IMG/VR virus record: IMGVR_UViG_3300028888_000097
Location: 1 to 64,000 of that record
From: a virus
Lineage: Duplodnaviria; Caudoviricetes
Length of the DNA: 64,000 nucleotides
Strand: one strand, 5' to 3'
The notes beneath the pieces were generated by a model. The model saw only the letters and a list, made by a program, of their open reading frames with translations, made no database searches and had not been told where the DNA came from. Positions 15,992 to 63,810 of the stretch are shown one piece after another (position 1 is the stretch's first letter; each line of letters starts with the position of its first letter). The translations under genes were made by a program, and so were the position numbers.

Positions 15992-16630
15992 ATGGCTTAC
16001 ATTGCGAATACGGCGTTTGAGTTCAAAAACTCGAACAGCATCTACAACGGCCTTCAGAATGTTGCGGGAAAGTTCGGTTCCTTCTCCGGAACGACCTTCA
16101 CCCCCGACGTCTGCTCCGCCGGTTTCATGGTGACGCAGAACTCCCTGATCCCCAACGAGGGCTACGAGAGCTTTGTGGACGCCTCTGACAATCCCCGGAT
16201 TCTGAACGGCAACACCTGGTACTTCGTCGCCGCCGCTTCCGGTTCCGTTGTGGGCGCACCCGGCGATCACACCGGCATCTATGCCGCCAACACCTACAAC
16301 GTGCATTCCGTGGTTTCCGCCAACGGTCAGATGAAGTACAACCTCGGCGCGAACACGCTGGGTCTGGCGATTCCCGCCGACGAATACGGCGACTTCACCG
16401 AGCTGATTGTCGGTGAACAGTACAAGTTCGGCGCGGGCAACTTCGCCTCCGTTCCCACGGTTGGGCAGTATGTGACGATTGTGAACGGACTCTTCTCCGC
16501 CTCCTCCGCCACCGCTCCCACGACCGGCGCGGTTTACGGTCAGGTTCTGCGGACGGAGCCGTTCAACGAGGGCGCGTCCTTCTGGGGCGACGGATACATC
16601 GTGAAGATCCTCCGCTCCGTTGGTGCTTAA
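15992..16630 (+). CDS. Head decoration/cement protein (putative)
   Basis: Gly/Ala/Thr-rich, strongly biased codons, immediately before MCP. Confidence 0.6.
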   Translation: MAYIANTAFEFKNSNSIYNGLQNVAGKFGSFSGTTFTPDVCSAGFMVTQNSLIPNEGYESFVDASDNPRILNGNTWYFVAAASGSVVGAPGDHTGIYAANTYNVHSVVSANGQMKYNLGANTLGLAIPADEYGDFTELIVGEQYKFGAGNFASVPTVGQYVTIVNGLFSASSATAPTTGAVYGQVLRTEPFNEGASFWGDGYIVKILRSVGA

Positions 16631-16652
16631 TTCGGAAAGGCAGGATGAAAAG

Positions 16653-17894
16653 ATGAATCTGAAACTCAACTCTCTCAACAGAGACCTCTTTATGGTCTCC
16701 GGCGCGAACGACATCCGCGTCAACACGGCGGGCGGCAAGCACATCTCCCGGAACGACGTTGTGTCCTCCGGCAGACTGCTTCTGACCGAGTATGTGGGCA
16801 ATCAGCTCAACCTCCGCCCCGACACGAAGGGTTCCTTCACCTCCCGGCTGAACGGCGTGAACTACTCTGACTTCGCTCAGAAAACCACGGAAAAGACCCT
16901 GATGTTCTGCGCGGCTCTTGCCAATCAGGCGGTCGGCAAGGAGGCTCCCGTTTCCTTCGACGAAGTGCGGAATAACATGAGCTACGCCAAGGACGAAAAC
17001 TTCCTCCGCGCTCTGGCGGCTATCACCCGCGACGTTCTGGAACCCACCCTCTTCGCCGTAATGGACGATGTTGCGGCGGGGAACCTGATGCAGTGGGAGA
17101 CCGTTCCGTTCGGCGGCACGAAGGAAATTACCATCGCGTCCAACGACGTATTCCTCTTTGAGGATTCCGCGTGGGGTTCCGCGAGAAGCGCGTCCTACAA
17201 CCGTCTCTATGACAAGACGATCACCCTGAATCCTTCTCCGAAGACCACTCAGGCGAAGATCTACTGGTATCAGCACGTTGTGAACGGCGACATCGGACGC
17301 TACTACGCCGCCATCGTTCGCGGCATGTGGAACAAGATCTACGCCATGTTCATTCAGAACCTGACGTCCGCTGTCGGCAACGTGGCCTACATTCCCACCG
17401 GTCTGACGGCTTCCGGCTACACGACGGACAACTGGAACGCCATCACGACTCTGGTGGCTGCCGCCAACGGTGTGAGACGCGACAATCTGGTTGCGTTCGG
17501 CACGGTTCAGGCTCTCTCCAGAGTCCTTCCCACCGACGGAACCGGCGCGGCTATCGTGGGTCTTCAGTATGGGCTGGGTGAGGACTGGATCCGCAGAGGC
17601 TACATTCCCAACGCCGCTGGTGTGCAGCTTGTGGAGATTCTGCCCGCGATTGTTCCCGGTACGCAGAACTCCACGCTCGACACCATCGGCTTCGGCGACA
17701 ACATTGTGGTCACGGCGAAGGGCGGCTACGGCTACGCTCCCATCTACGGCGGCTACTACGAAGGCTCTCCGCTCACGCTGGAGCTGAGACCCGAAGAGAC
17801 CGGCGATCTGACCATCGATGTGACGGCCACCGCGATCTTCGACATGAAGCCCGTGTTCGCCTCCAAGGTCGGCGTCATCACCGACGTTGCCTGA
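16653..17894 (+). CDS. Major capsid protein
   Basis: 413 aa, strong C-ending codon bias, head-module position. Confidence 0.8.
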   Translation: MNLKLNSLNRDLFMVSGANDIRVNTAGGKHISRNDVVSSGRLLLTEYVGNQLNLRPDTKGSFTSRLNGVNYSDFAQKTTEKTLMFCAALANQAVGKEAPVSFDEVRNNMSYAKDENFLRALAAITRDVLEPTLFAVMDDVAAGNLMQWETVPFGGTKEITIASNDVFLFEDSAWGSARSASYNRLYDKTITLNPSPKTTQAKIYWYQHVVNGDIGRYYAAIVRGMWNKIYAMFIQNLTSAVGNVAYIPTGLTASGYTTDNWNAITTLVAAANGVRRDNLVAFGTVQALSRVLPTDGTGAAIVGLQYGLGEDWIRRGYIPNAAGVQLVEILPAIVPGTQNSTLDTIGFGDNIVVTAKGGYGYAPIYGGYYEGSPLTLELRPEETGDLTIDVTATAIFDMKPVFASKVGVITDVA

Positions 17895-17993
17895 CGACAC
17901 GAAAAACTCTCCGGGGGCTTCACGGCCTCCGGAGGGAATTTGATTACATCCCAATGATCCCGGGAAACGAGAGTTATTACGGAGGATTTCAAA

Positions 17994-18707
17994 ATGGCGA
18001 GAACTGCGAAAGCGAAAAACATGGAAGCCGAATCCGTTCCGGCGGAAGAGGCGGTCCTTATGGAAAGCGAAATCAGCGAGGCGGCTGAACCGGCGGAAGC
18101 GGTTGAACCGAAGGCGGAGGAAAAATCCGACCGACGGGAATACACGGAAGCTGAGATTCAGGCGATTGTGGCGGCGGCGGTGAAGAACGCACTGGCTGAG
18201 CAGAAAAAGGCGGACGATCCCGACGGGATGGTAACACTTCTGTTCCTCGGAGGCATCGCTCCCGGCACGACGGTGACGCTTGACGGCATGGGGAGGATTC
18301 CCCGTGACGGGAACACGCTGACTGTGACGAAGCGGGATTTCTTCCAGAATCTCGGAGCGCAGACCGATCTTCTTCTGCGGAAGCGAAAACTGATTGTGAC
18401 GGACGGTCTGACGGACGAGGAACGGGAGCGGTACGGCGTCCTCTACAAGGACAACGAACTGCTTTCCGCTGCGGTCTACCAGAAGCTCCCGGACTACGAC
18501 ACGGAGAGGCTTTCCGGAATTTACGAAAAGCTCTGTCCGGAGCACAGGGAGCTTGTACGACGGGTACTCCACACGGGGGCGATGGACGGCGACTGGCGCG
18601 TTTCGGCGGACAAGCTGAAGGCGATTATCCGGATTGACCGCGCTGGTGGTCTGAAGGGTACGCCGCTCGAAGATGATCTGAAACGTCTGGCGGGAGAACT
18701 CGACTGA
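17994..18707 (+). CDS. Head-associated protein (YonA-like position)
   Basis: GGAGG RBS; acidic N-terminus; synteny. Confidence 0.6.
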   Translation: MARTAKAKNMEAESVPAEEAVLMESEISEAAEPAEAVEPKAEEKSDRREYTEAEIQAIVAAAVKNALAEQKKADDPDGMVTLLFLGGIAPGTTVTLDGMGRIPRDGNTLTVTKRDFFQNLGAQTDLLLRKRKLIVTDGLTDEERERYGVLYKDNELLSAAVYQKLPDYDTERLSGIYEKLCPEHRELVRRVLHTGAMDGDWRVSADKLKAIIRIDRAGGLKGTPLEDDLKRLAGELD

Positions 18708-18728
18708 CGAATTGAATAGAGGTGCAAT

Positions 18729-19457
18729 ATGGCGACTCCGATTTTACAGGTTATTACCCAATACTGCGAGGCATACGTGGACGATATACGTCTTGCGGAG
18801 GTGAGAGAATCAGCCCCCGCGCTTTACCTGAGACAGTGCTGGTTTTTCCTGAGGGTCGCCATTTCCCTTTTCAATCATCCGACGGAGATTCAGACCTACC
18901 TTCTCGGGACGGATAACGAACCGAAGCTGACGGAGCCTTCCTTTGCGGACACGGTTCTGACGCTTGACGCGGATCAGGACGGGGAATTCACGCTTTCCCC
19001 CGGTTTGGACTACGCGGGATATGAACTGGCGTCCTGCCGTATGCGGGAGACGGCTCCTGACGGCTATGTGACCTATTACGCGGTGGATTTCGCCTATGAT
19101 GCGCAGACAGGCGACTTTACCGTAAACGGTCAGTACCCGGCGGGAACAGTCTTTGAACTCGATTTCGCCAACGATGGGGAATTTCTTAACACGCTGACGC
19201 CCGAAATGATGGACATTCTCGGGACGGGGTTCGGGTTGACCTGGCGGGAGCGGTTCAACGCGGACTGGCTCTCTCTTGTGGCGAAGGTGGAGGACAAGTC
19301 CTTCAAGGAGCAGACGCGCTCCTCCGACAAGCGGGCCAATACGGAGCAGATTGAAGCGATGCGGGTTTCCTTTGCCGGGAAGATGCGGCGGTTCGAGCAG
19401 AATCAATACTACCGGAACTATGTTCCGCAGAGCGCAAGAATCGGAATCAGGAATTAA
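18729..19457 (+). CDS. Head-tail adaptor-like protein
   Basis: Synteny; GAGGTG RBS. Confidence 0.55.
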   Translation: MATPILQVITQYCEAYVDDIRLAEVRESAPALYLRQCWFFLRVAISLFNHPTEIQTYLLGTDNEPKLTEPSFADTVLTLDADQDGEFTLSPGLDYAGYELASCRMRETAPDGYVTYYAVDFAYDAQTGDFTVNGQYPAGTVFELDFANDGEFLNTLTPEMMDILGTGFGLTWRERFNADWLSLVAKVEDKSFKEQTRSSDKRANTEQIEAMRVSFAGKMRRFEQNQYYRNYVPQSARIGIRN

Positions 19458-19475
19458 CGAAGAAAGGGAAATAAC

Positions 19476-19820
19476 ATGAGAAATATCGGCGAAATGAAGG
19501 TCGAAAACGCTTCGGCGGCGACGATCTCCAGCATTTTCGTAAACAACGCCTGTGATCTCTGCACCGTTCAGGTGTTCGGATCCGCAACGGCGATGCAGGT
19601 AAAGATTCAGGGCATGACGGACACGGCTTCGGATGACTGGCGCGACATCGCGGTGTTCGATCTCGGAACGCTCGAGCTTTCCGACGGGTCCTACGGGATT
19701 CAGGCAGCGGGCGTTTATGCCGTATCGATTGCCGGATTGAAGCAGATCCGGATCAACGTGGTATCCGTGACCGGAACCGTGAACGTGACGGCGGCGTTTG
19801 CCAACACGTCCGCCGACTGA
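19476..19820 (+). CDS. 114-aa beta-rich virion domain, homologous to N-terminus of 26640..28160
   Basis: TVQVFGS..QG.TD....W.....AAGVY...I.G shared pattern. Confidence 0.65.
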   Translation: MRNIGEMKVENASAATISSIFVNNACDLCTVQVFGSATAMQVKIQGMTDTASDDWRDIAVFDLGTLELSDGSYGIQAAGVYAVSIAGLKQIRINVVSVTGTVNVTAAFANTSAD

Positions 19821-19836
19821 GAAGGGAGAGGAAAAG

Positions 19837-22128
19837 ATGGCTGTTGATGCACTGGCCCGTGCTCTGGCGGCGGGTAAAGTTCCGGTTTCCGCTTATGAGA
19901 TGGCGGTGAAAGCCGGTTATACGGGAACGGAAGAGCAGTTTGCCGAAGACATGGGGAACTCCGGGACCAATGCGGCGAACGCAGCGGCTTCGGCTTCTGC
20001 GGCGGCGGCATCGGCGGAATCTGTAAGCGCGAGTGCTGCGCAGATTGCGACGAATACGAATGATATTAGTGACTTAAAAGAATCTTTAAGTGATTACCCC
20101 AATGTAAAAAACATTGTTTATACTGGAACACCGTTTTTAACCACAAAAGCTATATATGATGCCGTTCTTTATCCAGTTGTTGGCGTTAATGTTTACAATA
20201 ATCAATACAGCAAATACAGGCTTTATCGTATGCGCCTTAAATACTCTACCGCACAAGCAGTTTATACTACTTTGCAAGGATTGTCGGGCGAAAACTGGGT
20301 AAATATCGAAAGCGTAGAAATTGCGGTTTCCGATCTCTCCACACTCAGCGGGATTGCACTGTATAAAAGTAATACAGGAAAATTTGATATTACAATAAAT
20401 TGGGATTTGGTTTCAAGTTCCATAAACGGAAGTAGCACTTATGAATTGAACAATTCTGTTATCAACTTAAAAACACAGAGCATAGAATCTGAAATTGCGA
20501 CAAACAAAGGAAACATCACTAAACTGGAAAACATTGTTTATACTGGAACACCGTTTTTAACCACAAAAGCTATATATGATGCCGTTCTTTATCCAGTTGT
20601 TGGCGTTAATGTTTACGATAATCAATACAGCAAATATAGATTAAACTACCTGAGATTAAAATTCACATCGGGTACAACTCACAGAACTGTATATACATCG
20701 TTACAAGGCTCTAACGATGGTTCGACGTGGACGCCTGTAGGAGAAGTTCTTGTCAACGCGGATGATTCAACATTTGAATCCGAATGGGCGGCACTCACGG
20801 GGCTTGCAGTTTATACATCTACAAATGGGAAATTCGACATTACCATAAATTGGAATGTTGTAGGGGATAGAATTAACGGCACATCTACTTATGATTTGAA
20901 TAACGGTTGTATAAATCTCAAAACAAAGTTGATAGACGGAAAATTGACGGCATTAGCTTCTGTTGATGAAATAGAGGATTTTTTGCTGATGACACACGCA
21001 AAGCATACGATTGATGTAGGTGTTGGGAAAGAATACACAACAATCGGCGCGGCGTATGCGGCAATAACAGACAGTTCTTTTGATAATCAATACAATGTAC
21101 GGATTTTTCCGGGAACTTATAACGAAATCGAACTTGCACCACCTGCATTTACTCACACTTTTGCGGCTTTTCCGGGTACTGTTATTGTTAATTCCGTGGG
21201 GGTTGATAATGGCACTATAAATGGCAAGCCACGAATGGAACAATCAACATTTAACCTAAGTCGAATCAGCAAATTAAGTGATTTAATTGTTTATGCCGAT
21301 GAAGGGATGAACTATTGCATTCATTTCGATAGCGGTATTTCAAGGCGCGCGGCAATTTGTGAAAATCTGTATTGTAAGAAATATTACGGAGTGGATGCTT
21401 CTCACCCGAACGGTCTAAATGTTTCAAATTACGCTTATTCCAGCTACGAAAATTGTCAAGTAATCGGAATGGGAATGGGCGGAAATGCTTATCGTGTTGA
21501 ATTTAATAATTGCTATTTTGAAAACGGCGATGTGGAAACGCACACACGGGCAAACAATTCGGAAAATCCCAATACAAAAATAATTTTCAACGGATGTCAG
21601 CGCATTAACAGCCGTTATCAAACAACAGTTGTCGGTAGTTACGCTTCAAATGGTTTATACATTTGCGAAATAAACGATGATGTTTCAAAATTTGGAGACA
21701 CTTCATTCATTTACGCATATCAGAGCGGCGATATTCCTTGGATTGTTATGGGTAAAAACAACAAGAATTTCGCTGTAAAATTCACAAAATTGGATGATAC
21801 GGCGGACAGCGATGAAAAATGGGAAAATATCGTTACAACTGATAAGAGGTATATTGCACTTGCTTCTGGCGTATCTGTAACAAAGGGGCAGTGGATAAAG
21901 TACGATGGAACTATTTGCGACAATTCCACAAGCGCTTTTGATGTATATGGAATCGCCCTTGTGGATGCAAATGCCGATACAAATAATGCTATTCCAGTAT
22001 GGTGCGGCGAAGCATATCCCATAATTGCAAACGACGGTGAATACGGAATTGATGCAACTGGAAATTTGTCGGAAAGTGCTACTACAAAAATAGGCAGAGT
22101 AGTAAATAATATTTTTTATCGTTATTGA
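19837..22128 (+). CDS. Fibre/receptor-binding-like protein: GC-rich N-terminal anchor plus AT-rich module (tandem repeats, beta-helix-like region, cement-like C-terminus)
   Basis: SAYEMAVKAGYTGTEEQFA; coiled coil ..NDISDLKESL; VGVGKEYTTIGAA..VRIFPGTYNE beta-helix start. Confidence 0.7.
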   Translation: MAVDALARALAAGKVPVSAYEMAVKAGYTGTEEQFAEDMGNSGTNAANAAASASAAAASAESVSASAAQIATNTNDISDLKESLSDYPNVKNIVYTGTPFLTTKAIYDAVLYPVVGVNVYNNQYSKYRLYRMRLKYSTAQAVYTTLQGLSGENWVNIESVEIAVSDLSTLSGIALYKSNTGKFDITINWDLVSSSINGSSTYELNNSVINLKTQSIESEIATNKGNITKLENIVYTGTPFLTTKAIYDAVLYPVVGVNVYDNQYSKYRLNYLRLKFTSGTTHRTVYTSLQGSNDGSTWTPVGEVLVNADDSTFESEWAALTGLAVYTSTNGKFDITINWNVVGDRINGTSTYDLNNGCINLKTKLIDGKLTALASVDEIEDFLLMTHAKHTIDVGVGKEYTTIGAAYAAITDSSFDNQYNVRIFPGTYNEIELAPPAFTHTFAAFPGTVIVNSVGVDNGTINGKPRMEQSTFNLSRISKLSDLIVYADEGMNYCIHFDSGISRRAAICENLYCKKYYGVDASHPNGLNVSNYAYSSYENCQVIGMGMGGNAYRVEFNNCYFENGDVETHTRANNSENPNTKIIFNGCQRINSRYQTTVVGSYASNGLYICEINDDVSKFGDTSFIYAYQSGDIPWIVMGKNNKNFAVKFTKLDDTADSDEKWENIVTTDKRYIALASGVSVTKGQWIKYDGTICDNSTSAFDVYGIALVDANADTNNAIPVWCGEAYPIIANDGEYGIDATGNLSESATTKIGRVVNNIFYRY
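20068..20095. repeat. Recombinase-like site L (in-frame inside fibre gene)
   Basis: AGTGACTTAAA-AGAATC-TTTAAGTGATT, at the GC-to-AT transition. Confidence 0.6.
20108..20636 (+). repeat. 420-bp-period tandem domain repeat
   Basis: 20108-20216 vs 20528-20636: 109 nt with one mismatch. Confidence 0.9.
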
Positions 22129-22150
22129 GTAAAGAAATCTTTGAGTCACC
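22123..22150. repeat. Recombinase-like site R (overlaps fibre stop codon)
   Basis: TATTGAGTAAA-GAAATC-TTTGAGTCACC; right arm is a 9/11 inverted copy of site L left arm. Confidence 0.6.
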
Positions 22151-22184
22151 AACTCACAGGGCCGAAATTACCAGCTTTTGACAC

Positions 22185-22216
22185 AAAAACGCCCGTCAGC
22201 GGATAACTGACGGGCG
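22185..22216 (-). terminator. Terminator between fibre gene and convergent recombinase
   Basis: CGCCCGTCAG/CTGACGGGCG perfect stem; A-tract on + strand. Confidence 0.8.
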
Positions 22217-22230
22217 GATGGCTTTGCATT

Positions 22231-23241
22231 TTACCTGTACTTGTTGTAGGAGTTTTTGACGGCCTGTTGATTAACGATGACGTACTGCATCGTGGTATTG
22301 ATATTCTCATGCCCGAGAAATTTCTGTACCTCTTCGAGGGGCATTCCGTGTCCAATCAGGTCTGTCGCCAAAGTCCGACGATATTTGTGCGGATATACGC
22401 CGCTCACTCCAGCTTTATCGGCAATCATTCTGAGGAGTTTCCGAACCCCTCCGGGCGTTAATCTGTCGCTCCGTTTACCAATAAACAGGGCCGGGAGTTC
22501 ATCCGTGCGGGTGTTCAAATATTCTTGCAGGAGCATTGTTGTGAGCTTATCGATATAGACCATGCGTTCCTTTCGCCCCTTGCCGTAAACCTTGATTTCA
22601 CGGTCTATGAAATCAATGTCTTCACGGTTGAGTTGACATATTTCGCTGATTCTGCATCCAGTCGCTTCAAGCAAGGCAAGCAATGCTCTGTTCCTGACTT
22701 CGGAGCACCTGTCGCCGCGCACAATATCACAACTGTTGTGCAACTTGTAAATGTCCGCTTTTGAGTAAACATCCTTAATTGTTTTCTCAAACTTGATCCT
22801 ACCGATGTTTTTCATCGGATTCTTTTCGATAATGTCCTCGTTGTGCAGCCACTTGAAAAATGCCGCCAGATTGCATCTCTTGTCTTCCAAGGTTATGTCG
22901 CTGTTACCTCTTGTTTTGCAGTCCTCCAAATATTGCCGAATGTGATAGACGGAGACACGGGAGACGGGCATTCCGCAAAAGTCAAAGAACTTCTTGATGG
23001 CATATTTGTAGTGCGAAATGGTCTTAGGCGTTCTGCCCTCAACCTTCAAGGCGAGAAGATAAGCGTCGATTACGGCAGAGGTTTCTTCATATTCAGCCGA
23101 CAGTATCCTATCGTCAATCTCATAATTTTCTGCTACGCTTTCGGCTATTTGTATCGCAACAATCGCATTGTCTGCGGTCAATGCACGATCAAAGCCTTGC
23201 GACATTTCACCTAACATTTGCTTTTTCTTAAACGATGACAT
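22231..23241 (-). CDS. Tyrosine recombinase 1 (XerD-like, SAM-like N-domain)
   Basis: TGCRISE, HKYRRT, LGH, TTMQY catalytic set; AAGGAGG RBS. Confidence 0.92.
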   Translation of the reverse strand: MSSFKKKQMLGEMSQGFDRALTADNAIVAIQIAESVAENYEIDDRILSAEYEETSAVIDAYLLALKVEGRTPKTISHYKYAIKKFFDFCGMPVSRVSVYHIRQYLEDCKTRGNSDITLEDKRCNLAAFFKWLHNEDIIEKNPMKNIGRIKFEKTIKDVYSKADIYKLHNSCDIVRGDRCSEVRNRALLALLEATGCRISEICQLNREDIDFIDREIKVYGKGRKERMVYIDKLTTMLLQEYLNTRTDELPALFIGKRSDRLTPGGVRKLLRMIADKAGVSGVYPHKYRRTLATDLIGHGMPLEEVQKFLGHENINTTMQYVIVNQQAVKNSYNKYR

Positions 23242-23294
23242 TTTTGTCCTCCTTGTAATAAAAAAATTTTCTAAAAAAGTAAAGGAGCGTCCAT

Positions 23295-23621
23295 ATGACG
23301 GCGCAGGAAATCATCGAAATCATTTTGAAATGGGCGATTCCGTTCATTCTTTCAACGGCTGCGTCTGCGGTCATTGCATACGGGCGCGGCATACATAAAC
23401 GAGCTACGGACAGGGAGCGGGCGATTGAGGACGGTTTACAGAGTCTTCTGCGGTCCGAGATCATCCGGGCAAACGACAAATACACGTCGCAGGGTTTTTG
23501 CCCGGTCTACGCGAAAGAGGCTTTGAAACGGTCCTACGAAGCGTATCACGCGCTGGGCGGGAATGATGTGGCGACGAAGCTCTATCACGACGTGATGGCT
23601 CTGCCGGAGAATCCGATTTAA
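23295..23621 (+). CDS. Lysis-module small membrane protein (holin-like)
   Basis: One N-terminal TM; Y..Y..LGGN motif; upstream of amidase. Confidence 0.55.
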   Translation: MTAQEIIEIILKWAIPFILSTAASAVIAYGRGIHKRATDRERAIEDGLQSLLRSEIIRANDKYTSQGFCPVYAKEALKRSYEAYHALGGNDVATKLYHDVMALPENPI

Positions 23622-23641
23622 TTTCCCGAAAGGATGAAGAC

Positions 23642-24856
23642 ATGGCACTTACGATTCGGAAAATTCCGATGCCGGTTTCGCAGTATCCGATCAAATGCCC
23701 TTACGGAATGAGCCCGACGCGGATTGTGATCCACAACACGGCGAACGACGCGTCGGCTGAGAACGAGATTAAATATATGCAGTCCAACTCCACGCAAACG
23801 TCCTTCCATTACGCCGTAGACGACAAGGAAGCGGTGCAAGGCGTGGACCTCTGGCGGAACGCATGGCACGCCACGGACGGAGCAAACGGGACCGGAAACC
23901 GCAAGGGAATCGCCATTGAGATCTGCTATTCCAAATCCGGCGGAGAGCGGTTCATGAAAGCCGAAGAGAACGCGGCGGAACTTGCGGCAAAGCTGCTGAT
24001 TGATTTCGGGTGGGGAATCGACAAGATCACGAAGCATCAGGACTATTGTTCGTGGAAGCACTGCCCCGGACGGACGCTCGATCTCGGGTGGGACCGGTTC
24101 GTAAAGATGGTGGAGAAGAAGTACAAGGCGATGGCGGGGCTGGGGGTTGAGGACGAAGACGAGGTCGTCAACCTTAACGGCTTCAAAATCGAGCGGATTC
24201 ACGATTTCTCGATTCTTTACTGGGACAAGTCGAAGAAGAAGGGGACTACCTCCAATTACATCAACGGCGGGTTCTTCGGGTACTACAAAGAAAACGGCGT
24301 GAACTTCACCCTTCCGGTGGGGAATCTGATGTGCGATCTGGAAGCGGGAAGCATCCCGTCTGTCGCGCTGAAATACCTCTCCGGATGTATTCACGGGAAG
24401 AAGCTCTGTTGGGGAACGAACGACAACGCTTCCGCTCAGTTCAAAGGGAAGACGGTATCGACGCTGGTTCTTCCGCAGACGGGAACGCCCTACGTCCGGG
24501 AGCTGGCGGCTCCTCCGGCGTCGTGCCGGTATGCGATTTCCGGGGTTCCGGTGATCCGGGGCGGAGTGGATATCTCCTACAACAATTTCGTGAAGCCGCA
24601 AGGATGGGACGATTCGTGCTTTTACGCGACTTCCCGGAACTTCATCGGGATCAAGGGGACGAGCCTGTGGGTGGTATCCGGAACGACGAAGACCTCCAAC
24701 TATGTGGCGACTTCCGAGGTTTACGACAAGCTGAAGGAGTTCGGGTTTGATGAGCTGATCTGTCTGGATGGCGGATCGAGTTTTTACCACAAGTATAACG
24801 GGAAATCGGACGTGGTTTGGGTTGACCGGAACGTGAACAACCTGATTCTGTACTGA
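23642..24856 (+). CDS. Endolysin: Amidase_2 (XlyA/CwlA-like) plus NAGPA-like C-domain
   Basis: IVIHNTANDASA, SFHYAVDD, IAIEIC, HQD..KHCPG; INGGFF and ICLDGGSS. Confidence 0.85.
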   Translation: MALTIRKIPMPVSQYPIKCPYGMSPTRIVIHNTANDASAENEIKYMQSNSTQTSFHYAVDDKEAVQGVDLWRNAWHATDGANGTGNRKGIAIEICYSKSGGERFMKAEENAAELAAKLLIDFGWGIDKITKHQDYCSWKHCPGRTLDLGWDRFVKMVEKKYKAMAGLGVEDEDEVVNLNGFKIERIHDFSILYWDKSKKKGTTSNYINGGFFGYYKENGVNFTLPVGNLMCDLEAGSIPSVALKYLSGCIHGKKLCWGTNDNASAQFKGKTVSTLVLPQTGTPYVRELAAPPASCRYAISGVPVIRGGVDISYNNFVKPQGWDDSCFYATSRNFIGIKGTSLWVVSGTTKTSNYVATSEVYDKLKEFGFDELICLDGGSSFYHKYNGKSDVVWVDRNVNNLILY

Positions 24857-24863
24857 GGGTTTT

Positions 24864-25115
24864 ATGTGGAGAATCGCACATTTCAAGTGGTGGGTTCGGG
24901 ATTTCTTCCGATTCATCCGAAGGATTCCCGGCTATCGGAGGCTTGACAGGGACTACGGATACGATCCGGATGTGTATGCGTTTATCATCAGTGAGTACGA
25001 ACGGGTTCTGCGTGAGCTTACGGGCGGGAAGATCTCCAAGCCGACCTACTCTGCGGAATATGTGATTACGACGGTGGAGGACCGGTATGCGGAAATCTAT
25101 GAAGAAAACGACTGA
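24864..25115 (+). CDS. Hypothetical protein
   Basis: In-operon ORF. Confidence 0.55.
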   Translation: MWRIAHFKWWVRDFFRFIRRIPGYRRLDRDYGYDPDVYAFIISEYERVLRELTGGKISKPTYSAEYVITTVEDRYAEIYEEND

Positions 25116-25506
25116 CACGGTCCTCTGGGCGAGGCAGTATTCCAAGCGGTTAATCACGGCATTGCTTGTGGGCTGGGCATTGGGGGCGGTCATCGGGGCG
25201 GTTTACGAATTTCTCCGGCTGATTGCGTCGCCCGAGACGGCGGGGATGGATGCGTTTTACATCTACCTGGCTGTGCCGCTGACGTGTGGACTTCCGTCCT
25301 ACCTCATCCCCAACCTCTTACTGAACAAAGAGAAGGTTAAACAGAACTACATTCCCAACTACGATCAAATCGTACTGAACGGGGAATATAAAAACGAAGA
25401 AGGAATCGGAACGACCGAAAACGAGGTAACGAATGATTTCAGACTTCACGCTGATTACGAAGCACTTTCCGGAAAACCGGGACATATTGATATTTCCAAT
25501 CTCTGA
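25087..25506 (+). CDS. Two-TM membrane protein
   Basis: Two hydrophobic segments; GGAGG RBS. Confidence 0.6.
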   Translation: MRKSMKKTTDTVLWARQYSKRLITALLVGWALGAVIGAVYEFLRLIASPETAGMDAFYIYLAVPLTCGLPSYLIPNLLLNKEKVKQNYIPNYDQIVLNGEYKNEEGIGTTENEVTNDFRLHADYEALSGKPGHIDISNL

Positions 25507-26221
25507 CGTCCATCTCGGCGCGGCGGAGCATATGGAATCCGCCTGGCGGGAGTTTCGGGCGGCTATCCAGAATGAGGAAAATTCCTACATTATACTGTGC
25601 GGAGATATGTGCAACAATGCGATCCGCAATTCTGTTTCCAATGTTTACGATGAGGTTCTCCGCCCGAGGGAGCAGAAGCGGTTGATGGTGGAAATGCTGA
25701 CTCCGCTCCGGGATAAGATCCTCTGCGCCGTTCCTGGGAATCACGAGTGCAGAAGTTCAAAAGAGGTCGATGATGACATTATGTATGACATCATGGCGAA
25801 ATTGGATCTCGAGGATTTATACCGGGAAAACATTGCTTTTCTAAAAATTCAAATTGGAAGTCTCACCGCAAACGGGACGCGGAATCCGACTTATACATTC
25901 GCTGTGACGCATGGATCCGGCGGCGGTGTTCTGACAGGCGGTTCCGTAAACCGGGCGGAGAGATTCGCATACGCAATTGACGGTGTGGACGCAATGATAA
26001 GCGGTCACGTTCACAAGCCATTTGTGTCCCATCCGGGGAAGATCAAGGTCGATACGAACAACAACAAAGTATCAATCAAGCCCTTCCATGTGGTAACGTG
26101 CAGTTCATGGCTTGAATGGGGTGGTTACGCAGCGAAAAAGATGTTGCTCCCCACCTCGCACATTCCGCAGAAGATCCTTCTTTCCGGCAAATCCAAAGAC
26201 ATCAAAATTATTCTGGGGTGA
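25433..26221 (+). CDS. Calcineurin-like metallophosphoesterase
   Basis: SDVHLG, GDMCNN, GNHE, THG, GHVH motifs. Confidence 0.88.
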   Translation: MISDFTLITKHFPENRDILIFPISDVHLGAAEHMESAWREFRAAIQNEENSYIILCGDMCNNAIRNSVSNVYDEVLRPREQKRLMVEMLTPLRDKILCAVPGNHECRSSKEVDDDIMYDIMAKLDLEDLYRENIAFLKIQIGSLTANGTRNPTYTFAVTHGSGGGVLTGGSVNRAERFAYAIDGVDAMISGHVHKPFVSHPGKIKVDTNNNKVSIKPFHVVTCSSWLEWGGYAAKKMLLPTSHIPQKILLSGKSKDIKIILG

Positions 26222-26639: not shown

Positions 26640-28160
26640 ATGGAAAGTCTGAATCTTGATTTTCTCCGGAACGCAACGGAAGCGGGATATGGTCCCGTAT
26701 TCCGAAACGACCGGTACAATCTGGCTGCCGTTCAAATCGAGGGGAGCTTTACGGGGCTATCCTTGGTTCTGGAAGGGCGGACGGACGTTGACGCGGGTCC
26801 GTGGGAGGCTGTCGCGGGGTGGTCTGTATCGGATCCGAATACGAAAACGGAGACAGTTTCTTCCGCCGGGATTTATGAATGGCGCATCGAGGGCATCCGG
26901 GAATTTCGGTTCCGGATTCTCGCCATTTCGGGCGGGGCGGTGAACGCTTCCGGCGTACTCTACAATTCGGCGGACAACTCGACCTATCCGTATACTTCGG
27001 CTCCCGGCTCCATTACGTTCGGGGATCCCGCGCTCTTTGTGAAGGGGATTTGTGAGCAGATCTTCTTCGACCCGTCCACGGGGAACATTGTGGGCTACGA
27101 CAACACGGCGACGGACGGTTCAGTGACGATTTCCGTGAATCTCGCGGAGATTGCGGGAGGCATGGGAAACCGGCTCATCGGGGTGCTTCCGGACACGGCG
27201 CGGATTTCGGGCGGGTACACGTCCTCGGCGTTCTCGCTCGAGACCCGTGAGAAGATCATGGGCGGGCAGATTGCGTACAACGCGGTCGCCCAGGTCTGCG
27301 AAACGGTAACGGCGGAATCCGAAACCCTCGTTGTCAGCCGGGAACCCGCTCCGTCCCTTGCGGAGAATCCGGGAGACGGGACCTTCTGGGCGTATGTGAA
27401 GCGCGTGGGAGACGGAGCGCAGAAAGGAATGAACGTCGGGGTTAATCCTTCGACGCGGGAGATTGTGAACTTCACGGCGGAGACGGGAGAGAAATACGAG
27501 GTGACTTATTTCGCTCACAACGTCTCGGCGCAGATGCTTCCGATTCCGTCCATTTGGAATCCCGTTATGATGACGGTACAGGAGCGGTACGGGGTTTACG
27601 CGAAGCAGAATGGGTCCGCCGAAAAGGGCGTTCTGAAGGGATGGCTTTACTTCATCGTTCCCCGCGCGATTCTAAACGCGGACGCCGGTGAATCCGCCTC
27701 CGAAACGGCGAACGCCACGACGGACGGAAGCTGGATTGCGATTCCGGAAAAGCCGGAGAACATGCCGTTCTGCGATTGCGACGAGAGTGCGCATCCGGTG
27801 GCTTACTATGTTTACGTCCCCTGCTCCGGCGAGAACGACGCGGTGACGGAAGTGGTTTCCGTCGGAAGCGGATTGACGCTGAAAGCGGGGAAGACGGCGC
27901 AGCTTCCGATCAAGCTGGTCATGCCGGATGACAGCCTCGTTCAGCCGGACTTCACGCGGATGGGATATTACTCCGAGGACGAAGCGGTGGCGACGGTGGA
28001 CAACCGTGGAATTGTGACGGCGGTTTCCGAAGGGCAGACGGTGGTTCATGCGTTTGTTTCCAAATCGGACGGTTCCTCCCTTGACAGCCGGACGATTGTG
28101 GCGGTGGAAGGAACGCGAAAAACGCTGACGGCGAACCGGAACAATATCTTGGTTGGTTAA
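26640..28160 (+). CDS. Tail-tube paralogue with extra N-terminal domain and C-terminal Ig-like domain
   Basis: ITFGDPALFVKGICEQIFFDPSTGNIVGYDN aligns with MTP ITLGTPNLFLKGIAEQTFYDPATGNIVGFDN along its length. Confidence 0.8.
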   Translation: MESLNLDFLRNATEAGYGPVFRNDRYNLAAVQIEGSFTGLSLVLEGRTDVDAGPWEAVAGWSVSDPNTKTETVSSAGIYEWRIEGIREFRFRILAISGGAVNASGVLYNSADNSTYPYTSAPGSITFGDPALFVKGICEQIFFDPSTGNIVGYDNTATDGSVTISVNLAEIAGGMGNRLIGVLPDTARISGGYTSSAFSLETREKIMGGQIAYNAVAQVCETVTAESETLVVSREPAPSLAENPGDGTFWAYVKRVGDGAQKGMNVGVNPSTREIVNFTAETGEKYEVTYFAHNVSAQMLPIPSIWNPVMMTVQERYGVYAKQNGSAEKGVLKGWLYFIVPRAILNADAGESASETANATTDGSWIAIPEKPENMPFCDCDESAHPVAYYVYVPCSGENDAVTEVVSVGSGLTLKAGKTAQLPIKLVMPDDSLVQPDFTRMGYYSEDEAVATVDNRGIVTAVSEGQTVVHAFVSKSDGSSLDSRTIVAVEGTRKTLTANRNNILVG

Positions 28161-48833: not shown

Positions 48834-49838
48834 TCAGAGGGTAAACGCGGAGAACTTCTCGGCGATATTCTTCGCGGCCTTCGCTTTATTGAGAATGTGG
48901 GTATAGACTTTCTCTGTGGTGCGGAGGCTGGAATGGCCGAGGGCAAGCTGAACATCGCGGATGTCGGCTCCGCCGTCGGCCCAGAGGGACGTCGCGCAAT
49001 GGCGGAGAAGGTGGGGATAGATGTCGCGTCCGATGACACGCTTTCCATATCGTTTGACGAGGCGGTCTAAGGTGGAGGCGTGGAACTTATGCCAGAGTTC
49101 GGCGCGGTTCGGTTCGTTCCCTTCGGGTTCATCAGTTTCTTCTTCCGATTCTATTTTGCCATCGTGCTGATGGGTTCCGAAGAGGAAGTCTTCATCGGTT
49201 GCCCATGCGGGGCGAATGCCGGAGTTCAGGTAATTCCGGAGGACGATTTGCGCGGCGGGCATGAAGGGGACGTTTCGTTCCTTCGATCCCTTGCCGTTCC
49301 GGACGGTGATGGTTTTTTCGTCCCAATGGAGATCTGAAGGGCGGAGTTCGCGCAGTTCGTCCGATCTGAGGCCGGTTAAGATGATGGTGGCAACGATGGC
49401 GTAGTTGCGCTTCGGGAGTTTGCCCTTGATGGAAACCGGGATATTGGCGGGGTCGAGCAGCCGTTTGATTTCGTCTTCCGAGGGGATTTCCTTTTTGGTG
49501 AAGGTGAAAGCGGGGCGGCTGGATTCGGGGATGGGGGATTCGGAGACGAGCTTCATTTTCTTCGCCCACGTGAAGAAGCGTTCGACCGCGCCGTAATACT
49601 GATTGGCGGAATTCTGCGAGACGGTTGACATGAGAGAATCGCTCCACTCCTGAACGGTTAAGGGGGTGATTTCATCGGGGTTCGTTTCGTTCAGGTAATC
49701 CCGGAATTTGCGTAATCCGAGGTCATAGGCGCGGACGGTATGTTCGGACTTCTTCTGGGCGCGTTCGGAGGCGAGGTATCGGGGGTACAGTTCGTTATAT
49801 TCGGCGGGGGTGAGGGATTCCGGGATCTGGTGGGACAT
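48834..49838 (-). CDS. Tyrosine recombinase 2 (XerC/D-like)
   Basis: TGLRSDE, KGSK, HLLRH, LGH, TEKVY. Confidence 0.9.
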   Translation of the reverse strand: MSHQIPESLTPAEYNELYPRYLASERAQKKSEHTVRAYDLGLRKFRDYLNETNPDEITPLTVQEWSDSLMSTVSQNSANQYYGAVERFFTWAKKMKLVSESPIPESSRPAFTFTKKEIPSEDEIKRLLDPANIPVSIKGKLPKRNYAIVATIILTGLRSDELRELRPSDLHWDEKTITVRNGKGSKERNVPFMPAAQIVLRNYLNSGIRPAWATDEDFLFGTHQHDGKIESEEETDEPEGNEPNRAELWHKFHASTLDRLVKRYGKRVIGRDIYPHLLRHCATSLWADGGADIRDVQLALGHSSLRTTEKVYTHILNKAKAAKNIAEKFSAFTL

Positions 49839-62763: not shown

Positions 62764-63810
62764 TTATTGGTTATTATTGGCAGAGGGGTTAAGGTTGTCG
62801 AGTGCGGTCATGAGGTCTTGGTTGACTTCGGATTCTTTGGAAGCGAGGTACTCTTGGTATCTCTTGAGCATGTGGTTTGTGGCGTGACCCATGCGCTCCA
62901 TCTGGTACTGCTCCGGGATGTTGAGGGCGGACATGACGGAAGCGTAGTAGTGGCGGAGGCCGTGGAAGGTGCAGTTGACTCCGCACTGCTTGGCAATGGG
63001 GGTGAAGCTGGTTGTAATGGTGTTTGGTTTATAGGGCTGGTAGTTGGGGTTGTCGCGGGCTTCGGCGAGTTTGTCAAGGACCCAGACGGGGCAGGGTACG
63101 GTACGTTCTCCGGCGGTGGTTTTGGTGTCCTTCAGGACGTAGGCGTTGTCCGGACCAATGACGAGGGCTTTGTCGATGTGGATGAGGCCCTTGTGGTAGT
63201 CGATGTCCTCGGCGAGGTTGAGGGCGCAGATTTCGGATCTTCTGAGTCCGCAAGTGGCGGCGAGGAGGACGGGAATTTCGAGGGGGGTATTTTCTATCTC
63301 CTTGAAGAGGCGGAAAAGGGAGTCCTGTTCGGGCATATCCAGACGCTTGCGCTTGACGGAGGGGAGGCGGACGTAGATCTTGACGTTGCGCTTTGCCTCC
63401 TTGACGGCGGCGTAGAGGAGGTTCCAGCGGTTGGCGACGGTTTTGGGCTTGACGGATTCGGCGTAGGCGTCGATGGACTGCTGGCAGATCTCATCGGTGA
63501 GTTCGCCGATGGTGAGGTTCATCAGCTCGGGGAAAGCGGACCGGGCGTGTTTTTTGTAATCCTGAAGGGTTGAGGGCGAGAGATCCTTTTCCCGGCGGGC
63601 GATGTACTGCTCTACTGCCTCCCGGACGGTAAGGGACATGGCGGAGATAGTTTTCGGGTTTTCGCCCTCCAGTGCCTTGACCTTCTCGTGGAGCTTGGCT
63701 TTGGTTGGGGCTGTCAGGTGCTTGTAGGTCTTTTTCCCGGTAGTGGGATCGACGCCGATGAAAACGGTGATCTCCCATGATCCGGATGCGGTTTTCTTGG
63801 CGGTAGCCAT
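62764..63810 (-). CDS. int: Phage integrase (tyrosine recombinase 3, arm-binding N-domain)
   Basis: GSWEITVFIGVDP.TGK; CGLRRSE, KT.AG.R, FHGLRH, MGH, RY; AAGGAGG RBS. Confidence 0.93.
   Translation of the reverse strand: MATAKKTASGSWEITVFIGVDPTTGKKTYKHLTAPTKAKLHEKVKALEGENPKTISAMSLTVREAVEQYIARREKDLSPSTLQDYKKHARSAFPELMNLTIGELTDEICQQSIDAYAESVKPKTVANRWNLLYAAVKEAKRNVKIYVRLPSVKRKRLDMPEQDSLFRLFKEIENTPLEIPVLLAATCGLRRSEICALNLAEDIDYHKGLIHIDKALVIGPDNAYVLKDTKTTAGERTVPCPVWVLDKLAEARDNPNYQPYKPNTITTSFTPIAKQCGVNCTFHGLRHYYASVMSALNIPEQYQMERMGHATNHMLKRYQEYLASKESEVNQDLMTALDNLNPSANNNQ

Follow-up and report, generated by a model that had tools for sequence, protein, structure and literature searches.

The described systems closest to the locus considered here are the Rin shufflon, the phage invertases Gin, Cin and Min, the integrons and the cassette exchange used in the laboratory. 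The locus lies in the window, i.e. the first 64 kb (64,000 nucleotides) of the 90,681-bp IMG/VR virus record IMGVR_UViG_3300028888_000097, and consists of a tail-fibre-like gene (P0001) and a convergent gene encoding an Xer-like tyrosine recombinase (P0002). Two short sites, L and R, bound a discrete in-frame cassette that makes up the tip of the fibre and has fixed boundaries. This cassette has been replaced repeatedly among relatives that keep the backbone and the recombinase, and the L/R pair co-varies and is associated with this family of recombinases across unrelated phages. Comparison with these relatives suggests a modular fibre locus, in which the recombinase, acting at L and R, probably swaps the whole tip in frame behind a constant anchor.

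The Rin shufflon was described in Bifidobacterium prophages (Mavrich et al. 2018, PMC6109161), and Rin is also named in Eggerthella prophages (PMC8778435). In it, an armless Xer-like tyrosine recombinase is encoded beside a receptor-binding-protein gene (PMC6109161); the present Xer-like recombinase lies in such a position beside the fibre gene and may be armless, the first ~55 residues of P0002 matching no family. In both cases, a constant N-terminus is joined to a variable C-terminus at a short in-frame site and a second site directly follows the stop codon. Several cassettes are stored in the Rin locus, and this locus has been seen in inverted variants, whereas the present one has one cassette and no spares, and its variation consists of replacement between genomes rather than inversion. 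The sites also differ, those described here being split palindromes of ~28 bp and the rix site of Rin an 11-bp asymmetric repeat. No Bifidobacterium phage record was present among the 25 listed of the 33 tblastn matches.

Gin, Cin and Min (from phages Mu, P1 and p15B) resemble the present system in that a recombinase encoded beside a fibre gene alters its C-terminus, hence the host range. They are serine invertases served by two or more alternative cassettes, whereas the present genome does not encode any serine recombinase (PF00239 is absent from the 90.7-kb record). Integrons share with the locus a tyrosine recombinase that stays with the backbone, promoterless cassettes that use a fixed docking site and a site after each cassette. 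They have long folded attC sites and cassettes that are whole genes, whereas the present locus has short duplex-type palindromes and a single in-frame cassette encoding part of a protein. Their integrase is of the IntI type, and P0002 scores far below the cut-offs of the integron-integrase models (TIGR02249, 66.5 bits for a cut-off of 265; NF011946, 41 bits for a cut-off of 435). Laboratory recombinase-mediated cassette exchange is an engineered process relying on Cre or Flp and on two mutually non-reacting sites. The present cassette is likewise bracketed by two sites, the cores of which differ in the wider recombinase family; by analogy, such differing cores would favour exchange of L with L and of R with R over loss of the cassette. 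Neither a natural counterpart to the laboratory process nor a description of a system of the present kind, i.e. exchange of a single cassette between genomes, was found in the literature searched.

Architecture of the locus and of its two sites

The features of the locus are as follows (coordinates in the window, strand, description):

19837–22128, plus: tail-fibre-like gene P0001, 763 amino acids (open reading frame and translation)
19837–20078, plus: constant N-terminal anchor, ~80 amino acids (first 242 nucleotides), guanine-cytosine (GC) content 0.57, shared among at least 60 proteins
20068–20095, plus: site L, in frame, encoding SDLKESLSD
20096–22122, plus: variable C-terminal cassette, GC 0.38, with an internal repeat, dissimilar to the cassettes of the relatives L157 and L158
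22123–22150, plus: site R, overlapping the TGA stop codon (22126–22128)
22140–22230, no strand: conserved non-coding stretch from R to the recombinase stop codon, including a terminator hairpin (alignment to the related locus L016; terminator scan)
22231–23241, minus: Xer-like tyrosine recombinase gene P0002, 336 amino acids, convergent with the fibre gene (Pfam, NCBIfam and PDB matches)
23281–24856, plus: context region, at the start of which (23281) blastn homology with recombinase-less relatives restarts
23295–23621, plus: holin-like gene (PHROGs, Pfam)
23642–24856, plus: amidase endolysin gene (PHROGs, Pfam)

The fibre gene is the final member of a tail-gene run, and the holin-like and endolysin genes follow the fibre/recombinase pair, the stop codons of which are 102 bp apart. 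A first, sequence-only reading of the window had reported a switch of GC content within the fibre gene and a complete convergent recombinase gene with its own terminator, and both are borne out. GC content falls from 57% to 38% inside site L (0.574 for the anchor, 0.382 for the cassette, 0.457 for the recombinase gene and 0.529 for the whole genome), P0002 is intact, and a terminator scan located a hairpin (22190–22216) with a T-run on the minus strand, downstream of the recombinase gene. That reading had also found no spare cassette in the window; this extends to the whole 90,681-bp record, in which the locus matches only itself and no further sites were found.

Both sites were found exactly as they had been given. 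Site L comprises, in this order, a strong outer half-site, AGTGACTTAAA, the core AGAATC and a weak inner half-site; site R comprises a weak inner half-site, the core GAAATC and a strong outer half-site, TTTGAGTCACC. In both, the strong half-site faces the backbone and the weak, variable one faces the cassette. Joining the outer halves gives GTGACTTAAA-AGAATC-TTTGAGTCAC, a near-perfect palindromic core site, as had been proposed (left arm of L and right arm of R complementary at 9/11 positions), which looks like a full tyrosine-recombinase core site split by an inserted cassette. The inverted 11-6-11 arms that had been attributed to each site stand for L (9/11), yet at a level no rarer than chance, and do not stand for R (4/11, no palindrome). 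Their shape being uninformative (L not significant by itself, R no palindrome), it is comparison with relatives that gives the sites weight. The fold of 22120–22235 is dominated by the terminator hairpin, R being a motif of ~25 bp. The proposed similarity of the two cores in direct orientation holds in this lineage for the LKES-type genomes, and only for these: their cores are near-identical (AGAATC versus GAAATC or GAAAAC) and three of the four carry the recombinase. The LKTQ-type relatives of the lineage have mismatched cores and no recombinase.

By its domains, P0002 belongs to the Xer-like tyrosine recombinases: it has a catalytic domain (Phage_integrase, PF00589, E value 1e-36) and SAM-like N-terminal, core-binding domains (PF13495, PF02899), the family matches beginning at residue 55–60. 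Its score with the NCBIfam model XerA (226.6 bits) is above the cut-off (220), its best solved relative is the XerC-like 4A8E, and the top structures are archaeal XerA-type proteins and XerD of Escherichia coli. Six positions (R197, K221 or K224, H285, R288, H311 and Y320) do not vary across 22 aligned homologues and, from the surrounding sequence motifs, are the candidate catalytic set. The genome encodes two further tyrosine recombinases (48834–49838 and 62764–63810, both on the minus strand), P0002 thus being an extra one.

Replacement of the tip and recurrence of the sites

A search with fibre residues 1–90 found 69 proteins, ~60 of which have all of the anchor, or its first half, in common (~60–100% identity) and part ways at or just past a joint of the type ...D(I/L)(S/T)DLK. 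The tips found behind the shared anchor carry Metallophos, GDSL, CotH, GDPD or beta-helix domains. Two apparent anchor-only proteins were discarded, P0191 being truncated at a contig end and P0194 being a split fibre. Short metagenome contigs (P0191, 501 nucleotides; L152:5870–5887) end exactly at the L joint (...SDLKES), which is the behaviour of an assembler where several sequences branch at one point.

Seven syntenic genomes of the lineage are readable at the DNA level. Relatives with the same N-terminus and recombinase and with different C-termini breaking exactly at L had been predicted, and L157 and L158 behave in this way. Both carry the recombinase gene in the identical convergent slot (90–92% identity to P0002, 90–96% among the recombinases of the window, L157 and L158), the tip being a GDSL esterase in L157 and a metallophosphatase in L158; no similarity is detectable in pairwise comparisons of the cassettes of the window, L157 and L158. 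Homology between the window and L157 extends over 16001–20089, then over 22130–25993, i.e. it stops inside L and restarts inside R. Between L157 and L158, it breaks at L and restarts at the stop codon/R. The homology of the window to six lineage relatives ends at 20075–20090, and an R-like motif follows the fibre stop codon in all lineage relatives. The cassettes of all lineage members (L006, L008, L010, L156, L157 and L158), with or without recombinase, have a GC content of 0.36–0.47 in backbones of 0.56–0.58, which suggests a shared low-GC pool and a fast turnover.

The sequence-only reading expected the sites to be conserved next to homologous recombinases, and this is the case in phages unrelated to the lineage (L016, L152); none of the outcomes that it had named as refuting was encountered. 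L016/L017, a siphovirus-type prophage equipped with an integrase of its own and with a CI-type repressor, encodes a recombinase 76% identical to P0002 and shows the succession fibre, stop codon, R, ~100 nucleotides, convergent recombinase. Its homology with the window begins inside R and, as read by eye from the alignment, amounts to ~95% identity over 22140–22230 and ~70–75% over the recombinase gene. Its fibre has an in-frame GALKESL (CTTAAAAGAATCG...) exactly where GC content drops from 0.61 to 0.40. A third phage type, L152/L153, adjoins a serine integrase and has the same layout; the L152 recombinase is also 76% identical to P0002, and its fibre has an in-frame SDLKES site, the contig beginning only five codons upstream. 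L152 and L153 are 97.7% identical over the recombinase and R, their cassettes differ, and the break lies inside R. The recombinase slot beside the fibre is occupied likewise in L157, L158, L016 and L152. A gene of 76 amino acids lies just upstream of the recombinase gene in L016 (L016:5204–5434) and L018 (L018:633–863) and is absent in the window; it matches HTH_26 in L016 only and could encode a regulator or a directionality factor.

In IMG/VR, 362 loci encode relatives of P0002. Eighty of them were fetched, making up a set of 81 loci with the window; 79 of the 80 are 38–49% identical to P0002, the exception, L069, being the L016 contig itself. An open reading frame of at least 350 amino acids ends beside the recombinase gene at 44 of the 81 loci, and ~25 of these frames have both an in-frame (V/I)(S/T/G)DLKS(A/E)(L/F) motif and a post-stop motif (consensus CTTAAAGGACACTTTAAATCAGTAAC). 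A site matrix was built solely from the post-stop R sites. Besides the window, 13 loci pass the score cut-offs for both the R site and the fibre site, and in every one of them the best match of the matrix in the fibre gene falls on an in-frame (D/E)(L/V)K joint. When the matrix is built without the window's own site, R and L are the top two matches in the 90-kb genome. Within a locus, the outer half-sites of L and R coincide at 5.17 of 7 variable positions, compared with 3.97 for half-sites from different loci; none of 20,000 permutations attained the within-locus value. Outside the matrix set, a site is located within 1.5 kb of the recombinase gene in 22 of 69 loci, for 1.6 after shuffling. 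A search of IMG/VR with the exact 15-mer of R gave a real match only in the L016 contig, the other 46 stretches being chance matches.

Xer-like genes 25–31% identical to P0002, annotated as integrases, are located between the last tail/fibre gene and the holin gene in two cultured Clostridia phages, Terrisporobacter phage TPELB_ph1 (L154, PP197244), which has a second, larger integrase, and Clostridium phage phiCp-D (L155, MW478291). Both keep the fibre-recombinase-holin slot, yet an L/R motif of the present type was not found in them.

Reaction path and alternative explanations

Taken together, these comparisons point to the following model. The anchor would be joined in frame, at L, to an exchangeable tip cassette ending at R. 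P0002 would cut and rejoin the DNA at L and R, replacing the entire tip in frame, either through cassette circles that are excised and inserted or through a paired exchange, L with L and R with R, with another phage or a prophage in the same cell. The resulting virion would recognise or degrade a different surface sugar, which would change the host range. Tentatively, this could be a natural recombinase-mediated cassette exchange, in which unrelated phages of gut and rumen Firmicutes would share a pool of AT-rich tips, a standard in-frame LK-xx-L docking site and small Xer-like recombinases that also act in trans on phages without the gene. Such a system would account for the precision, noted long ago, with which the mosaicism of phage receptor-binding proteins respects domain boundaries.

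Clean swaps of receptor-binding tips at domain boundaries are usually credited to selection acting on the rare products of homologous or illegitimate recombination. If the present model is correct, a dedicated recombinase and a standard in-frame docking site would allow phages to acquire new host recognition actively and at high frequency. A shared cassette pool would link otherwise unrelated phages, among them the 90-kb SPbeta-like phage and small siphovirus-type prophages, and laboratory phage work would gain a natural tool for exchanging cassettes in frame. The sites being short and the recombinase small, the model is directly testable in plasmids.

Several observations weigh against this model, and some of them would be accounted for by ordinary module shuffling. 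According to the latter, which appears unlikely overall, homologous or short-homology recombination would occur in the conserved DNA on either side of the cassette, i.e. in the 240-bp anchor upstream and in R, the recombinase and the lysis genes downstream, and selection would keep only in-frame joints at a structural linker, while the recombinase would serve elsewhere, for example in dimer resolution, or in integration with R as its own site. Further distinct cassettes are found in L006, L008, L010 and L156, i.e. in four of the seven relatives, which lack the recombinase gene and in which homology with the window restarts at 23281 (at 23630 in L006). Exchange can therefore do without the recombinase gene in cis: the recombinase may work in trans, its gene may have been lost in these phages, or shuffling may be part of the explanation. 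The flanks are 86–94% identical among lineage relatives, which is sufficient for homologous recombination, and L010 has no L motif, its homology break being located 3 nucleotides upstream. DLK-type motifs recur between domains inside cassettes as linkers, so part of their conservation may be structural. Inverted 11-6-11 repeats as good as that of L number 18 in the window, for 9 in shuffled sequences. The wider recombinase family has unlike cores, AGCGC in L and GACAC in R; these would impede a classical reaction between L and R and favour the exchange of L with L and of R with R.

Shuffling leaves unexplained the degenerate non-coding copy of the joint that lies right after the stop codon in ~25 unrelated phages, the co-variation of its strong half with the in-frame site and its clustering near the recombinase family. 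It also leaves unexplained the break inside R between L152 and L153, despite a far flank that is only 80% identical. As to a role of R in integration, the degenerate R pattern gave five chance matches among GTDB species genomes, none of them prophage- or attachment-site-like.

Another point weighing against recombinase-mediated exchange is that no recombination product, be it a circle junction or an empty site, has been seen. A search of IMG/VR for an empty site, i.e. the two strong half-sites joined, found none. Four matches were obtained and rejected: L161 is an in-frame L site within a fibre of 1434 amino acids, L159 is an ordinary post-stop R site beside a broken recombinase gene, and L160 and L162, both giant-virus metagenome-assembled genome records, look like chance matches. 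L075 and L147 were considered as multi-cassette versions; L075 is not a shufflon, as the genes between its two R-type sites (L075:3693–4650; 190 and 86 amino acids) are non-fibre genes. In L010, two R-like motifs ~100 bp apart (roughly 8443 and 8528, in L010:8422–8616) flank a short open reading frame remnant. The paired R motifs of L010 and L075 could be relics of past insertions, or the slot could hold other genes.

The strong half-sites of L and R are inverted relative to each other in 12 of the 13 paired loci; this arrangement fits a split palindromic site and also an invertase-type layout. The second alternative is inversion in the manner of Rin or of a shufflon: the recombinase would flip the segment between L and R, and the locus would be an on/off switch or a shufflon that has lost its spares. 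One conserved arm stands beside one variable arm in the sfx sites of plasmid R64, which the present sites recall. Rin itself is an armless tyrosine invertase encoded beside a receptor-binding-protein gene, with sites inside and just after this gene (PMC6109161). The 90.7-kb genome has no spare cassette to be exchanged by inversion, and none of the paired loci is flipped, all of them being in sense orientation. The cores of the lineage are more alike in direct orientation, and relatives differ in the content of the cassette, not in its orientation. According to a by-eye reading of the sequence, inversion would add ~20 antisense codons and then a stop codon to the anchor, giving a dead fibre. 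An antisense open reading frame of 149 amino acids (21703–22152), considered as a post-inversion tip, was rejected because its frame, also read by eye, differs from that of the junction created by inversion. An inversion switch is improbable overall.

The cassette protein and neighbouring genes

The cassette encodes two tandem domains of ~140 amino acids, then a domain of 383 amino acids (20977–22125), which AlphaFold models as a right-handed beta-helix with a predicted local distance difference test score of 90. Its nearest Foldseek matches are pectin methylesterases and pectate lyases (E value 5e-5, template-modelling score ~0.4). The right-handed beta-helix is a common fold in phage tailspikes. 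The cassette domain is found behind other N-termini in ~100 relatives, and several of these have an SDLKS joint. Searches of the fibre against Pfam, PHROGs, NCBIfam and a protein atlas gave no usable match. The tandem domains start with a stretch of 112 nucleotides that is 98% identical between the two copies (20108–20219 and 20528–20639), and a second repeated stretch of 70 nucleotides (20342–20411 and 20792–20861) is only 73% identical. This uneven tandem repeat looks like a recent gene conversion or a recombination scar. An L-like peptide, NKGNITKLEN, stands before the second tandem copy.

In the phage collection (GenBank/INPHARED records), blastn found no counterpart of the locus, and the fibre N-terminus had only weak partial matches or none in IMG/VR, in JGI metagenomes and in GTDB genomes. 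Directly upstream of the fibre gene lies a XepA-like gene of 114 amino acids (19476–19820), and a gene encoding a XepA + Big_2 protein of 506 amino acids (26640–28160) is located 4.5 kb downstream; both are kept in all lineage relatives.

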